From IMG/VR virus record IMGVR_UViG_2585427792_000006: a DNA stretch of 8,017 bases. One strand, written 5' to 3'. Shown in pieces: positions 1 to 8,017 of the stretch. This stretch comes from a virus (taxonomy: Duplodnaviria; Heunggongvirae; Uroviricota; Caudoviricetes). The position numbers were made by a program, and so were the translations under genes. Within the stretch, counting starts at the first letter, position 1; every line of letters begins with the position of its first letter. Below the pieces are notes generated by a model. That model was not told the DNA's origin. It saw only the letters and a list, made by a program, of their open reading frames with translations, and made no database searches.

Positions 1-1089
1 TCCCGTAAATCCTCCGGTTGCAAAATGGAATTTCGCCGCAGCGGCCTGAATGGCTGTACCGCCTGACGCGGATGCGCCGCCACCAACAGCCCCGCCAATG
101 GCGCTGCCGATACTCCCGACAATCCCCACCATTGCCTGCTTAAGCAGAATTTCTGTCATCATGGACAGCACGGAACGGGTGAAGCTGCGCCAGTTCTGTT
201 CGCTGCCGGTCAGCATCGCCGCCATATTCTGTGCAATACCGTCAAAGGTCTGCGTGGCCACACTTTTAACCTGCGAAAAACTGTCCGTCGCACTTTCCGC
301 CCACTCTCCCCAGCCGGACTTCATCCCGGCCATCCAGCTTCCACGAAGCTGCTCCTCCGCAGACCTGGTGTTCTTCAGTGCAGATGTGGCCTTCGCCAGC
401 GCAGCCGGATTATCACCGTACACCTCACGAAGGCGCTGCTCTTCCGACTCCCGCTGCGCCTGACGGTCGGTGAGGCCGCGGGCTTTTGCGCTGATTGCCG
501 CCTGCTTCGCGCTTTGCTGCTGTTCAAACCGCGCCGCCTGCTGTGCCAGCTCATTCAGCCGCTTCTGGTGTTCAATCTTGTCTCCCAGCTCAGCCAGCTG
601 GCGTTTGTACTCCAGCGTCTCTTTCTCATGAGCCAGCAGGGATTTTTCCTGCTCAGATAACTGCCGTTTCGTGGCGGCCTCTTTCAGGACCACATACTGA
701 TTTTCCGCTTTCCATAAATCACGGCGCTGCTGGCTGATTTTTTCATTCGCACCGCTGTGCTTCTCCAGCGTCCTGAGCTCAGTTTCAAGCGCCAGCAGGG
801 CTGCATGCGCCTGGTCTTCCTGGCGCTCACCGGCAGACACCTTCACACCGGACGGCTTTTTCTGCGTCGACTCATAATCCTTTTTTGCCGACGCCATCAG
901 CGTGTTGTAATCCGCCTGCAGGATTTTCCCGTCTTTCAGGGCCTTATTCAGCTCTTCCTGCCGGGCGGTATATTTCTCCAGTGGCGTCAGCAGGCGCTCA
1001 TACGCCTTCTGCGCCTCTCCGGTATACTTCAGCTGTGACGACTCACGCTCAGCCCTGTCCCTTGCCGCCTGTTCACCGGCTTTTTCCAT
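1..1089 (-). CDS. H: Tail tape measure protein, distal segment. Open reading frame from the A5 run to the window start with no stop inside the window; the 3' end of the gene lies beyond coordinate 1. It is in the +1 frame relative to the N-terminal segment (1073..2212). Start coordinate is the first in-frame ATG (1087..1089), which is not necessarily a used start.
   Basis: Manual reverse-complement translation of 1..1089 gives one continuous frame: ...AGEQAARDRAERESSQLKYTGEAQKAYERLLTPLEKYTARQEELNKALKDGKILQADYNTLMASAKKDYE...GANEKISQQRRDLWKAENQY...SWMAGMKSGWGEWAESATDSFSQVKSVATQTFDGIAQNMAAMLTGSEQNWRSFTRSVLSMMTEILLKQAMVGIVGSIGSAIGGAVGGGASASGGTAIQAAAAKFHFATGGFTG. This is colinear with the central part of lambda gpH as I recall it, including the glycine-rich hydrophobic segment. 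Confidence 0.85.
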   Translation of the reverse strand, partial: MEKAGEQAARDRAERESSQLKYTGEAQKAYERLLTPLEKYTARQEELNKALKDGKILQADYNTLMASAKKDYESTQKKPSGVKVSAGERQEDQAHAALLALETELRTLEKHSGANEKISQQRRDLWKAENQYVVLKEAATKRQLSEQEKSLLAHEKETLEYKRQLAELGDKIEHQKRLNELAQQAARFEQQQSAKQAAISAKARGLTDRQAQRESEEQRLREVYGDNPAALAKATSALKNTRSAEEQLRGSWMAGMKSGWGEWAESATDSFSQVKSVATQTFDGIAQNMAAMLTGSEQNWRSFTRSVLSMMTEILLKQAMVGIVGSIGSAIGGAVGGGASASGGTAIQAAAAKFHFATGGFTG

Positions 1090-2212
1090 CAGCCTTCTTT
1101 CGGGCGGCTTCAAGCGCAAGACGGGCCTTTTCACGATCATCCCAGTAACGCGCCCGCGCTTCATCGTTAACAAAATAATCATCCTTGCGCAGATTCCAGA
1201 TGTCGTCTGCTTTCTTAAACGCAGCCTCTGCCTTAATCAGCATCTCCTGCGCGGTATCAGGACGACCAATATCCAGCACCGCATCCCACATGGATTTGAA
1301 TGCCCGCCCAGTCCTATCCGCCCAGGTCTCCAGCGTGCCCATGTTCTCTTTCAGGCGGCGGGTCTGGTCATCAAACCCTTTCGTGGCGACATCGTTCGCC
1401 GCCTGCAAGGCCCCGGCCTCGTCTCCGGAACGCTGCAGTTGTGCAACATACGCAATCTGCTCTGCCGTCACGTTACGGAACTGGCGCGCCATCGCCATCA
1501 GTCCCGACGTCGGGTCAGTGGTCAGCTTCCCGAAGGCTTCAGCGACTTTATCCACCTCCACACCGGATGCAGACGCAAAACGCGCGACACTCTGGTTAAT
1601 GGCATCAAACTGTTCACCACCACGCACACCGGCATTCACCAGGGCTGCCAGTGACTCACTCGCCTGGTTAAACGTCAGCCCTGCTGCCTGCCCGGCTCTT
1701 GAGAGCGTCAGCATACGATCGGCAGTCAGTCCGGCCTGATTGCCGGAAAGGACCAGCGTTTTATTAAATTCTGAAAGCGTGGAATCTCCCTGGTACCAGG
1801 CGTACACCAGCGCACCTGTCGCCACCGCCAGCGAGGTGACCCCGACCATCGGCAGGGTGATCGCACCGGCAAGCCCCCTGAACATGGGGATCATCCCGCC
1901 GAAGGAGTCCTTCACCTGACCGCCCTGTTGCAGCAGGATCAGCCAGGGATTCTGACCACCGGCAAGCTGCGTGGCGATATCCGTAAACTGTGCGGGCAGG
2001 GTTCGCATGGCCGCTTTATACTGTCCGACGGAAATCCCTGCTTTTTGTGCAGCCAGCGCCTGGCGGCTCAGCCCCTGCTCAACAGCACTGGCGGTTTTTC
2101 TGGCGTCAGTATCCAGACCTGAAAAATGACGCCTTACCCGGCTCATCTGCTCATCGAAACGGACCGCATCCAGACTAAGGTCAATAACAAGATCACCAAC
2201 CGGCTGGGACAT
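1073..2212 (-). CDS. H: Tail tape measure protein, N-terminal segment (379 aa), ending at a TGA directly after an A5 homopolymer. It is probably the 5' part of one H gene interrupted by a frameshift.
   Basis: ORF-track protein MSQPVGDLVIDLSLDAVRFDEQMSRVRRHFSG...EARARYWDDREKARLALEAARKKADGKSR is colinear with the lambda gpH N-terminus. RBS GGGAGGTG lies about 7 nt upstream of the ATG at 2212. The start overlaps the end of the T frame by 20 nt. Confidence 0.9.
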   Translation of the reverse strand: MSQPVGDLVIDLSLDAVRFDEQMSRVRRHFSGLDTDARKTASAVEQGLSRQALAAQKAGISVGQYKAAMRTLPAQFTDIATQLAGGQNPWLILLQQGGQVKDSFGGMIPMFRGLAGAITLPMVGVTSLAVATGALVYAWYQGDSTLSEFNKTLVLSGNQAGLTADRMLTLSRAGQAAGLTFNQASESLAALVNAGVRGGEQFDAINQSVARFASASGVEVDKVAEAFGKLTTDPTSGLMAMARQFRNVTAEQIAYVAQLQRSGDEAGALQAANDVATKGFDDQTRRLKENMGTLETWADRTGRAFKSMWDAVLDIGRPDTAQEMLIKAEAAFKKADDIWNLRKDDYFVNDEARARYWDDREKARLALEAARKKADGKSR

Positions 2213-5547: not shown

Positions 5548-6576
5548 TTATTTCACCTGTACCACCACAAACTCATCCGGATCCGGCAGCACCATCAGCG
5601 GCGCGGACTGCGTCATGGTGAATTCACAGGACGGATCGCCCACGGTCAGCCAGTGTTTCGGGTAACGGGAAGAAGCCACCACTCCTTCAGATAACGCCTG
5701 TGCATCCTTAATGGCTCCATAGCAACGAATCCCCTCTGCTGCCGTATTCCCCAGCACCAGCGTGCCCTCCGGCAGATAACGTTTTTCGGTACCGTCCTCT
5801 GCCACATAAGACGTTTTCGCTACCACAATGGCCAGATCGCCGTAATACCCCTTGAAGGATACCACTGCGCCCAGATCTTTCACTGCCGTTTCGAGTTGTG
5901 AATTTGAACCGCGACGGGTATCCAGTTTTTCGCGGAAAAGCTTAAAGCCATTCAGCAGACGCCAGACGGTACCGTCCATAATGGCAATATTCACAAGACC
6001 ACTGGCCTGATCACAGAAAAGGTCGATATCATATGTCGGGTCGAACGTGTCACGATCCTGTTTTGACCACTCCTTACCGCTACCTTGTATGATGTTATTC
6101 TTCGTCGATCGGCCAAAATCGACTTCAATTTTCTCGAACTGGTCTCCTTCCATCGTATATTTGCCATACAGCACGGCATTCACCGCCTGCATTTCTTCCA
6201 CCTGGACAATAGCGTGCTCTTCCTGTTTGAGGTTATCGGTAATGATACGCAGACGACGGTAGGCCGGGTCGTTCAGCTGAGCCGGATCTTCACCAGGAAG
6301 GCGCTCAACCGCCTGCTGGTAATTAAATTCGTGTTTGGGCTTGACGTAGCCCGGACGTAACACGCGGGTTTCACCACCGCGATGGCGAAGCACTTTTCCT
6401 TCAACGATCGGGGAGACATAGGCCGCCACCGGCGTTTTTCCGGTAATTTTGTCCAGCATCACCTCTTCGGTGTGGAAATTCACCGTACGGCGGAAAAACA
6501 GCTCCAGAAACAGCGCACGGAATTTCACTTTTTGTTCGGTATAACCGAGTAACTGGCGGGTCGTAAACAATCCCAT
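5548..6576 (-). CDS. E: Major capsid protein E (342 aa)
   Basis: Protein MGLFTTRQLLGYTEQKVKFRALFLELFFRR...YVSPIVEGKVLRHRGGETRVLRPGYVKPKHEFNYQQ...AYRRLRIITDNLKQEEHAIVQVEEMQAVNAVLYGKYTMEGD...KLDTRRGSNSQLETAVKDLG...TMTQSAPLMVLPDPDEFVVVQ is colinear with lambda gpE (341 aa). RBS AAGGAA is 8 nt upstream of the ATG at 6576. Confidence 0.97.
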   Translation of the reverse strand: MGLFTTRQLLGYTEQKVKFRALFLELFFRRTVNFHTEEVMLDKITGKTPVAAYVSPIVEGKVLRHRGGETRVLRPGYVKPKHEFNYQQAVERLPGEDPAQLNDPAYRRLRIITDNLKQEEHAIVQVEEMQAVNAVLYGKYTMEGDQFEKIEVDFGRSTKNNIIQGSGKEWSKQDRDTFDPTYDIDLFCDQASGLVNIAIMDGTVWRLLNGFKLFREKLDTRRGSNSQLETAVKDLGAVVSFKGYYGDLAIVVAKTSYVAEDGTEKRYLPEGTLVLGNTAAEGIRCYGAIKDAQALSEGVVASSRYPKHWLTVGDPSCEFTMTQSAPLMVLPDPDEFVVVQVK

Positions 6577-6633: not shown

Positions 6634-6981
6634 TTACGGCAGCGCCGCGTGACTCAGGGCACTGCCGGTAAAGGCGTTGGCCTTTTTGTGTTCATCCACA
6701 CTTTCAGGCCAGCGGATTGCCTCCGTCGCAAAGGTCCCCGACTTGTAATACGTCAGCACCGCCTCTGTGCCTTCAAGCGGCAGTACCAGTATGCCAACCG
6801 CACTACCGGCTTTCTGTCCGTCCCAGACCACCAGTTTCCCGGTGGCCCCATCCAGCATCAGGGGTGTCAGTGCTGGTGTTGCCGAGGAAATCCCGCTGCT
6901 GCCTGTGGCGGTGTGAGCCGGATCATTACCGGCAAAAATACGTACTTCCGCACGCTGTTCAGTGATGGTTTTCGTCACCAT
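6634..6981 (-). CDS. D: Head decoration protein D (115 aa)
   Basis: Protein contains ...GNDPAHTATGSSGISSATPALTPLMLDGATGKLVVWDG...AVGILVLPLEGTEAVLTYYKSGTF..., matching lambda gpD motifs (SDPAHTAT, MTPLMLD, KLVAWDG, VGIL, YKSGTF). Its position between C/Nu3 and E also matches. Confidence 0.93.
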   Translation of the reverse strand: MVTKTITEQRAEVRIFAGNDPAHTATGSSGISSATPALTPLMLDGATGKLVVWDGQKAGSAVGILVLPLEGTEAVLTYYKSGTFATEAIRWPESVDEHKKANAFTGSALSHAALP

Positions 6982-7017: not shown

Positions 7018-7620
7018 TCATGGCATGGCCATGAGCATTTTCACGTCCGCATCACCGTCTTCTGACGCCTGTGACACGCCCCCCTGGACCGCAGCCGGTG
7101 AATGGTTCGCCATGAAATGTTCAAACAGGGCGGTTGTGGATGCAGAGACCGGTTCTGCCTTACCTGAGCCCGCAGCCAGCACAGCCCGGGCGCTCTCCAC
7201 GGTCATTCCCGGGCAGGCAGCCAGCTGTTCAGCCTGCGCCTCAGCCCCTTTTGCCTCATCCAGTGCCATGATCTGATCACGGAGTGATGGTCCGGCATTC
7301 GCCTGCGGTGAAGCAGCCAGGATCGGGCGGGCTTTTTCCACCGTCATCTCCGGCATCGCCGCCAGCGTTACTGCCAGTTGTTCACGACCGTTCGCTTCTT
7401 CACACGCCATAATGCGATCGGCTTCACTCTGCGCGGATGCCACCGGCTGCTGCGGTGCCGCCGCGGCCAGAATAGCCCGGGCCTGTTCAACGCTCATGCC
7501 CTGTTGCCCTGCCAGCATCGTGGCAAGCTGTTCACGTCCTTTCGCTTCCTGGCATGTCAGGATCCCCATCACTCGCTGGTTCTCCTGCACGGCGGCTTCC
7601 GTTGCAGTTAATTGCGGCAT
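7018..7620 (-). CDS. Nu3: Nested in-frame scaffolding protein (Nu3-like), 200 aa, translated from an internal start within C
   Basis: Internal ATG at 7618..7620 is preceded by the strong Shine-Dalgarno GAGGAGG (spacer CACT). The resulting 201-codon nested ORF agrees with my recollection of lambda Nu3 (about 201 codons sharing the C stop). An alternative start is the ATG at 7567..7569. Confidence 0.55.
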   Translation of the reverse strand: MPQLTATEAAVQENQRVMGILTCQEAKGREQLATMLAGQQGMSVEQARAILAAAAPQQPVASAQSEADRIMACEEANGREQLAVTLAAMPEMTVEKARPILAASPQANAGPSLRDQIMALDEAKGAEAQAEQLAACPGMTVESARAVLAAGSGKAEPVSASTTALFEHFMANHSPAAVQGGVSQASEDGDADVKMLMAMP

Positions 7621-8017
7621 AGTGCCTCCTCTGACATTACTGTTCAGCGCCGTGGCCATCACACTGATGGCATCCGACGCATTGATTAATTCATCCGCCA
7701 GCCCGGCCTCAATGCCGGACTGACCTTCAAAAACGGCGGCCTCTGTTCCCGTGACCGCATCCACAGACAACCCGGTATACATCGCCACTTTTTCGGCAAA
7801 CATCCGGTGCGCCGCATCAATCCGCTGCTGCATATCCTGGCGAACCTCTGCCGGCAACGCTTCAAACTGATTGCCATCCACCTTGTGCGCCCCGGCATAA
7901 ATCAGCGTGATATCCACACCGGCCTGCGCCAGATGACCGGCATAGCTGACATGGCTCATCATCACGCCAATGGAGCCGATACGGGATGTCTGGGTAACCA
8001 GCCGTCGGGAGCAGGCC
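7018..8017 (-). CDS. C: Head maturation protease / scaffold protein C, 5'-truncated by the window edge. The frame is open to coordinate 8017, so the GTG at 7965 in the ORF track is not the real start.
   Basis: The frame continues upstream of 7965 as ...SRRLVTQTSRIGSIGVMMSHVSYAGHLAQAGVDITLIYAGAHKVDGNQFEALP..., matching the S49/ClpP-like protease core of lambda gpC (GSIGVMMAHVSYAGHLAQAGVDITLIY...). The C-terminal part is the scaffold-like domain. Confidence 0.92.
   Translation of the reverse strand, partial: ACSRRLVTQTSRIGSIGVMMSHVSYAGHLAQAGVDITLIYAGAHKVDGNQFEALPAEVRQDMQQRIDAAHRMFAEKVAMYTGLSVDAVTGTEAAVFEGQSGIEAGLADELINASDAISVMATALNSNVRGGTMPQLTATEAAVQENQRVMGILTCQEAKGREQLATMLAGQQGMSVEQARAILAAAAPQQPVASAQSEADRIMACEEANGREQLAVTLAAMPEMTVEKARPILAASPQANAGPSLRDQIMALDEAKGAEAQAEQLAACPGMTVESARAVLAAGSGKAEPVSASTTALFEHFMANHSPAAVQGGVSQASEDGDADVKMLMAMP
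7168..7575 (-). repeat. Three diverged in-frame tandem repeats (period about 141-150 bp, 47-50 aa) inside the C/Nu3 scaffold-coding region
   Basis: Protein units: VMGILTCQEAKGREQLATMLAGQQGMSVEQARAILAAAAP / RIMACEEANGREQLAVTLAAMPEMTVEKARPILAASP / QIMALDEAKGAEAQAEQLAACPGMTVESARAVLAAGSG. The DNA units are also recognisably similar, e.g. gccagttgttcacgaccgttcgcttcttcacacgccat versus gcaagctgttcacgtcctttcgcttcctggcatgtcag on the plus strand. Confidence 0.8.

Follow-up and report, generated by a model that had tools for sequence, protein, structure and literature searches.

What does it mean that the scaffold part of a lambda-like prohead protease gene carries the same short protein segment three times? 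The question is raised by an 8,017-nucleotide stretch of the Caudoviricetes record IMGVR_UViG_2585427792_000006 (IMG/VR), hereafter the window, in which a protease/scaffold gene of the lambda C/Nu3 type fills the last kilobase on the minus strand. A first-pass annotation made from the letters of this DNA had proposed a three-fold tandem repeat at positions 7168-7575, possibly an expansion relative to lambda. Here, we confirm the three units, trace them to a feature already recorded for phage 21, and weigh what their amplification could do for procapsid assembly.

The scaffold part of the gene encodes three copies of one unit

A hidden Markov model (HMM) of the unit gives exactly three full-length matches in the partial gene product. 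The units begin at residues 148, 201 and 248 of the partial open reading frame (ORF), that is, at window positions 7575, 7416 and 7275, with start-to-start spacings of 53 and 47 amino acids (aa).

7447..7575, minus strand: unit 1 (RVMGILTCQEAKGREQLATMLAGQQGMSVEQARAILAAAAPQQ), unit HMM residues 151-190, 75.6 bits
7300..7416, minus strand: unit 2 (RIMACEEANGREQLAVTLAAMPEMTVEKARPILAASPQA), unit HMM residues 201-239, 80.8 bits
7159..7275, minus strand: unit 3 (QIMALDEAKGAEAQAEQLAACPGMTVESARAVLAAGSGK), unit HMM residues 248-286, 73.5 bits

Each unit combines a conserved core of about 36-39 aa, with the consensus I[LM]..xEAKGRE.LA..LA..(P)GMTVE.AR.ILAA, and a variable linker of 8-13 aa. The conserved Nu3 core (..IMGIL.CEEA.GRE..A..LA..PGMTV..AR.ILAAAP) is thus present in three copies in the window, scoring 73-81 bits each, and in one copy in lambda. 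The triple unit is confirmed, and the span proposed for it is accurate to within a few bases, with the end of unit 3 now placed at 7159.

At the protein level, the repeat is unambiguous. Pairwise local BLOSUM62 scores between the units are 101, 87 and 90 (z = 14.8, 11.1 and 13.9), as compared with means of 25-29 for composition-preserving shuffles, none of which (0/2000) reached the observed score. The claim that the repeat can also be seen in the DNA stands in part: local DNA alignments between units carry a real signal (z = 7-9), but a weak one. An exact repeat search recovers a single in-register 12-nucleotide (nt) seed, found three times at spacings of 153 and 150 nt, and Tandem Repeats Finder, run on the window, reports an unrelated 18-nt repeat alone and misses the array because the DNA copies are too diverged. 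Codon-aligned unit cores share 60-64% DNA identity, and their third codon positions agree at 0.33-0.47, against a chance expectation of 0.29. Third positions this close to chance indicate that the similarity of the units in DNA mostly reflects protein conservation and, together with the core identity, that the duplication is old.

The ORF that contains the units runs from 7018 to beyond 8017, so that 332 aa lie in the window and the 5' end is cut. Its product matches Peptidase_S49 (PF01343) with an E-value of 6.7e-27 and 94.8 bits (cut-off 24.9), which places it among the S49 serine proteases of the ClpP/SppA clan on the C-terminal part of the domain that the window holds; NCBIfam SppA_dom gives a partial match. 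Searches against PHROGs assign the entire product to 'head maturation protease', with three or four distinct stretches of its C-terminal part matching the 'capsid assembly protein' and 'head scaffolding protein' families. The order C/Nu3, decoration protein, major capsid protein is found in the window; the portal gene, which lies upstream of the C/Nu3-type gene in phage 21 and H49, falls outside it. The S49 domain upstream of the units, these PHROGs matches, and the D/shp- and E-like genes downstream bear out the earlier placement of the repeat in the scaffold part of a C/Nu3-type gene.

7018..8017, minus strand: 3' two-thirds of the prohead protease/scaffold gene (phage 21 gene 5, lambda C homologue), from the ORF list and 97.3% nucleotide identity to phage 21
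7018-7020, minus strand: stop codon of this gene, whose 5' end lies beyond the window
7645..8013, minus strand: C-terminal part of the Peptidase_S49 (SppA-like) protease domain (Pfam PF01343, residues 2-124)
6634-6981, minus strand: decoration protein (D/shp-like), 115 aa, from the ORF list
5548-6576, minus strand: major capsid protein, 342 aa, 61% identical to lambda gpE

The triplication is that of phage 21

Over 1000 nt, the 1-kb segment that holds the gene shares 97.3% DNA identity with phage 21 (M81255, OL657228), without indels. It also matches a group of related Escherichia phages and is present in about 1870 of 5426 complete E. coli genomes. The homologue is annotated as gp5 / capsid protease-scaffolding protein in OL657228/M81255, and the feature table of M81255 lists gene 5 (501 aa) together with a nested gene 6 (200 aa) that has its own putative ribosome-binding site (RBS). 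Within gene 6, the same table marks three repeat_region features, 'Tri1 box', 'Tri box' and 'Tri3 box', with the note 'function unknown; putative', which map to the window as follows.

7450-7553, minus strand: Tri1 box, within unit 1
7303-7413, minus strand: Tri box, within unit 2
7159-7272, minus strand: Tri3 box, corresponding to unit 3

Translated, the Tri boxes are exactly the three units found here. The gene is the same in the window and in phage 21: the nested ORF, the RBS and all three repeat segments coincide in position, and the only differences are point changes, such as A/V in a few places. On this evidence, the triplication is the already-annotated Tri-box feature and, as such, essentially ordinary; its standing as already known rests on the GenBank M81255 feature table. 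The annotation of the window is thereby settled as a phage 21 gp5/gp6 homologue with the Tri-box triplication, which is neither an assembly artefact nor a new expansion.

Lambda carries a single unit

The first-pass annotation had put a single unit in lambda C/Nu3, and its reading would have failed had lambda carried the same three. We found one HMM match in lambda gpC (439 aa), at residues 362-401, and no second unit there even at very permissive thresholds, with domain E-values up to 1000. The count of one was therefore correct, and lambda does not share the triplication. The overlapping part of the window product is 48% identical to lambda gpC in amino acids. In BLASTP alignments, the lambda unit pairs with unit 1 plus the flank that precedes it (ITAAVAAENS against TEAAVQENQ) and also with unit 3 plus the tail that follows it (TALDRLMQGAP against TALFEHFMANH), a two-way correspondence that would be expected from internal tandem amplification between conserved flanks. 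The same division is seen across a phage collection, in which 20 records (19 phage-21-type Escherichia phages and Gifsy-1) match the full 200-aa three-unit protein, and about 80 lambda-type records match across one 38-aa unit alone.

In other respects, the two systems are alike. Lambda gpC/gpNu3 (NC_001416, lambdap05, lambdap06) has an S49 protease with an in-frame nested scaffold, the C/Nu3-D-E gene order, a homologous unit and C-terminal tail, and a capsid protein that is 61% identical; it differs in having one unit instead of three and a low-complexity linker of about 50 aa before it. It had been suggested that the repeat changes the length of the scaffold domain. This is correct for the full-length protein, which at 501 aa exceeds the 439 aa of lambda gpC by 62 aa, but not for the predicted nested scaffold, which at 200 aa equals the 201-aa lambda Nu3 in size. 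The nested products come out equal because the Nu3 start annotated in lambda falls inside the protease domain, 70 codons further upstream, and because the low-complexity linker of about 50 aa in lambda is reduced to about 15 aa in phage 21.

A single copy is the general state

A search of 1.84 billion representative proteins with a profile built from 29 units retrieved 1338 at E <= 1e-3, including 101 at E <= 1e-10. Among the best 150 of these 1338 proteins, about 135 hold one full unit, nine hold two and three hold three. The single-unit proteins comprise 58 long ones, in which the unit is fused to a protease and lies about 80 aa from the C-terminus, and 77 short ones that are stand-alone or fragments. 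Neither Pfam nor NCBIfam has a family that we could find for the unit, and NCBIfam has none for the scaffold part.

A species survey of one genome per species, based on alignment A1, yielded 22 loci. Three units occur in E. coli, Shigella flexneri, E. albertii, Trabulsiella and Providencia, and all 17 loci outside this Escherichia/Shigella, Trabulsiella and Providencia group have one. These single-unit loci belong to another Enterobacteriaceae bacterium, Vibrio, several Rhizobiales (including Rhizobium), Paracoccus, Caulobacter, Leptospira, Bryobacter, Desulfarculus and others. The protease domain ahead of the unit is CLP_protease (PF00574) instead of S49 in several alphaproteobacterial loci, where the unit lies near the C-terminus; these ClpP-type loci are from a Pleomorphomonas metagenome-assembled genome (L013), Rhizobium (L015) and Paracoccus (L023). 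Since a single unit is found in most of the best 150 proteins and in distant species, a single copy is general and, most parsimoniously, ancestral. The comparison thus supports the suspicion that the three-unit form is an expansion: lambda, about 135 of the best 150 proteins and the 17 outgroup loci all point the same way.

The triplication is nevertheless not recent. In a neighbour-joining tree of unit cores, window units 1, 2 and 3 group by position with those of close homologues, and units 1 and 2 also group with the same-position Salmonella units. Therefore, the triplication predates the split of those prophage lineages. Gifsy-1, whose protein is annotated 'prohead protease; lambda gpC homolog', and other Salmonella prophage S49 peptidases carry three units in the same order, each closest to the same-position window unit (56-63% identity), although their linkers and tail have diverged.

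Unit copy number varies among relatives

Among relatives, the copy number of the unit ranges from 1 to 4, partial copies included, so that a check for variation among related prophages, as the first-pass annotation had proposed, is answered in the positive. A close relative (P0018) lacks exactly unit 2, and another protein (P0022) has a hybrid of units 1 and 2, which, judged from its sequence, is the signature of unequal crossover. Other internal deletions are found in P0015 and P0101. An in-frame 57-nt deletion inside unit 2, with about 5 nt of microhomology at its junction, is present in H49, P0009 and P0010; counted with a 42-nt junction query, this allele occurs in 56 complete E. coli genomes. 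It had been argued that such repeats are hotspots for recombination and for slippage during replication. The natural deletion and hybrid alleles bear out that the repeats are prone to indels, but classical slippage is unsupported, because the units share too little DNA identity for these indels to arise by it in simple form.

A copy of the 57-nt deletion allele in NZ_AP022221 (L004), at 1799-1803 (window ~7320-7373), is mosaic. Its identity to the window is 99.7% 5' of the junction (7373-8017) and falls to 92% 3' of it (7018-7320). This change in identity at the junction indicates that the deletion coincides with a recombination breakpoint between diverged alleles.

A four-unit lineage of E. 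coli prophage S49 peptidases (P0040 / L027, GCA_032727965 contig 410-918) is present in 106 complete genomes; among the matches listed, all that cover the full 744 nt have the same length. Its architecture and gene neighbourhood are those of the window, with an HDPD decoration protein, Phage_cap_E and Packaging_FI as neighbours, and it differs in having four units, of which units 2-4 are much more alike. These three cluster together in the tree, and Tandem Repeats Finder reports a 138-nt period with 3.7 copies and 77% matches. Their high similarity indicates a separate, more recent amplification, with units 2-4 being recent or homogenised copies.

A further protein, P0043 (270 aa), has about 55 N-terminal residues that resemble a DNA methyltransferase fragment (…DLIVCDPPYG…), in frame with a three-unit Nu3-like scaffold. 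Rearrangement or a mis-call of the ORF is the probable explanation.

A predicted nested scaffold frame is retained

The three units lie within a nested in-frame ORF of 200 aa that shares 95.5-96% amino acid identity with phage 21 gp6 and relatives. Its putative internal start is kept in the window (AGGAGGcactATG), with AGGAGG-N4-ATG at 7631-7618. Both phage 21 records annotate its Shine-Dalgarno (SD) sequence as a putative RBS, M81255 for gene 6 and OL657228 for CPT_21_06. Beyond the last unit, the frame ends in a tail that is homologous to the lambda Nu3 tail (TALDRLMQGAP...DLLNTPV).

7018..7620, minus strand: nested in-frame scaffold ORF, 200 aa, beginning MPQLTATE (phage 21 gp6, lambda Nu3 analogue), with its ATG at 7618-7620
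7625..7631, minus strand: Shine-Dalgarno (G)AGGAGG, 4 nt upstream of the internal ATG; putative RBS in M81255 and OL657228
7021..7158, minus strand: scaffold C-terminal tail with two smaller conserved motifs (ALFEHFMANHSP... and ...DADVKMLMAMP), from alignment A1 and BLASTP against lambda C

The position of this start differs from that of the annotated lambda Nu3 start, and the codon at the lambda-type position reads ATT (Ile) in the window. Lambda has the same strong SD and ATG at the equivalent position, M309 of gpC (C codon 309; AGGAGGgcgaATG), and its annotated Nu3 start, 70 codons upstream of it, has a weaker SD. Separately, OL657228 marks two 'CII binding site' pattern matches in the gene, at about 7368-7381 in the repeat region and at about 7602-7615 near the gp6 start; both are pattern matches only.

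Structural predictions

For one unit, modelled as a 43-residue peptide, AlphaFold returns a compact three-helix model with a predicted local distance difference test (pLDDT) score of 80.5. The whole 200-aa scaffold, modelled by AlphaFold2 with an alignment of 18 sequences, reaches a mean pLDDT of 52, too low to build on, and consists of helices joined by low-confidence linkers. A title cited in PMC11922011 describes lambda gpNu3 as intrinsically disordered, and, as far as that title goes, the low-confidence model of the whole scaffold agrees with it. A sequence search of the PDB found no relative. Within the unit, the predicted helices are 5-10 residues long and broken by Gly/Pro, and the longest helix in the low-confidence whole-protein model has 22 residues; the long uninterrupted amphipathic helices of a coiled-coil scaffold were not seen in these AlphaFold models, no dedicated coiled-coil predictor having been run.

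What the units may do

In lambda, Nu3 is the scaffold, interacts with E, with C and with itself, and is required for the incorporation of the portal protein B into the procapsid (PMC3224144). Before DNA is packaged, Nu3 is removed, and its degradation may be the work of gpC, itself described as the viral protease (PMC3224144 and titles of cited references). Against this background, we favour, with a probability of roughly 0.7, the reading that the window holds a phage-21-type nested protease/scaffold gene of an E. coli lambdoid prophage, in which three old units of a helical mini-domain were amplified from one and serve as interaction modules. One frame would give two products, a full-length S49 prohead protease with a scaffold tail (gp5) and a 200-aa scaffold (gp6). 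The module would have gone from one copy to three in an ancestor of the group formed by the phage 21, Gifsy-1, Trabulsiella and Providencia prophages, and an independent amplification would have brought it to four in a different lineage of E. coli prophages. Each unit may bind the major capsid protein and/or other scaffold chains, so that the units would drive procapsid assembly and carry the attached protease inside. Three of them would make a multivalent scaffold, in place of the long low-complexity linker of lambda Nu3, and the protease would remove the scaffold after assembly, as in lambda. An analogy, and no more than that, is offered by P22 gp8 and phi29 gp7, in which a short helical hairpin, a helix-turn-helix coat-binding element within a largely flexible scaffold, binds the N-arm of the capsid protein (PMC11922011); no sequence or detectable fold relationship to these was found, and they are not fused to the protease and carry one such element each.

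Several observations weigh against this reading. Support for the internal start is limited to sequence signals and to annotations that are themselves 'putative'. The search for structural neighbours of the single-unit model gave none that was informative. The extreme C-terminus is what binds coat in P22-type scaffolds, and the coat-binding element here could likewise be the conserved C-terminal tail (7021-7158) instead of the units. Moreover, natural alleles exist that lack all or part of unit 2, and therefore three copies may not be required. The persistence of these damaged alleles is compatible with coat binding by the units and by the tail alike.

Two alternatives concern the repeat itself. 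That it is a by-product of low-complexity composition has next to no probability. The protein is 22.5% Ala and Tandem Repeats Finder is blind to the repeat at the DNA level, but the shuffles never reach the observed scores (z = 11-15) and the same position-specific pattern recurs in more than 1000 proteins, which rules out an origin in Ala/Gln/Glu-rich composition. It is also improbable, if less extremely so, that three units are ancestral and that lambda and other single-unit phages lost two. Units do get lost in close relatives, as the protein without exactly unit 2 (P0018) and the unit 1/2 hybrid (P0022) illustrate, and units 1-3 are old. However, single-unit proteins dominate across distant taxa and in combination with two protease types, whereas multi-unit forms are confined to a few Enterobacterales lineages and scattered independent two-unit cases. 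That a single unit is the general and, most parsimoniously, ancestral state and that three represent an expansion is therefore supported.

The remaining alternatives concern function. A role in DNA contact, with each unit a helix-hairpin-helix (HhH) motif, is very improbable. Unit 3 has a weak Pfam HHH match (E 0.044 when the whole protein is scanned, E 0.0019 with the unit alone), and 'L..PGMTV..AR.IL' resembles the HhH consensus, L..lpGIG..tA..I. We rejected the assignment to PF00633 since the score of 14.1 bits falls below the cut-off of 24, only one of the 29 units matches at E <= 1, and the units read PGMT or PEMT instead of GhG. It is rather unlikely, though well short of far-fetched, that the units are self-association or spacer elements that set the oligomer state or length of the scaffold, with coat binding left to the C-terminal tail. 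The predicted length of the scaffold is kept (200 as compared with 201 aa in lambda Nu3) despite a different composition, alignment A1 shows conservation of the tail motifs F[DE]xFM and [LM]LMx[MI]P, 56 genomes still carry an allele in which unit 2 is damaged, and an interaction of Nu3 with itself has been reported for lambda (PMC3224144). Nonetheless, conservation of the unit is far broader and stronger than that of the tail (1338 proteins, EAKGRE), which is unexpected for a pure spacer.

The unit is the most conserved part of alignment A1, with a near-invariant EAKGRE motif, and in prophage proteases of the S49 and ClpP types alike it lies close to the C-terminus. It is tempting to go further than the interaction-module reading and to propose, tentatively and at less than even odds, that this ~39-aa 'EAKGRE...GMTV..A..LAA' unit is an uncurated mini-domain that serves as a universal procapsid-targeting and coat-binding element of S49- and ClpP-linked scaffolds, with its copy number acting as an evolvable valency knob. 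If so, copy numbers of 2, 'two and a half', 3 and 4 would already be represented among natural E. coli prophage alleles. No piece of this very common class of phage scaffold is more conserved than the repeated unit, for which there is no curated family or solved structure; the natural alleles with 1-4 and partial copies provide a ready series for studying scaffold valency in lambda-type procapsid assembly.

Neighbouring genes and other observations

The long coherent ORFs of the window all lie on the minus strand, in lambda late-operon order. In addition to the capsid genes given above, the following are read from the ORF list.

Between the tape-measure and capsid genes, minus strand: G/T-like, V-like, U, Z, FII and FI-like ORFs
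1..2212, minus strand: tape-measure gene, lambda H-like

The lambda H-like tape-measure ORF ends after 379 aa (...EAARKKADGKSR*), at window ~1073-1110 on the minus strand, and H-homologous reading resumes in a different frame past this stop and continues off the left end of the window. Compared with intact E. coli genes, the region is 92% identical and counts 401 nt here against 403 nt there. The difference suggests a 2-nt deletion with a frameshift, and hence either a defective prophage or a sequencing error.

On the plus strand, three antisense ORFs of 77-103 aa (7025-7276, 7378-7611 and 7412-7723) run across the scaffold region; most likely, the GC-rich, Ala-rich coding strand gives rise to them as a side effect.
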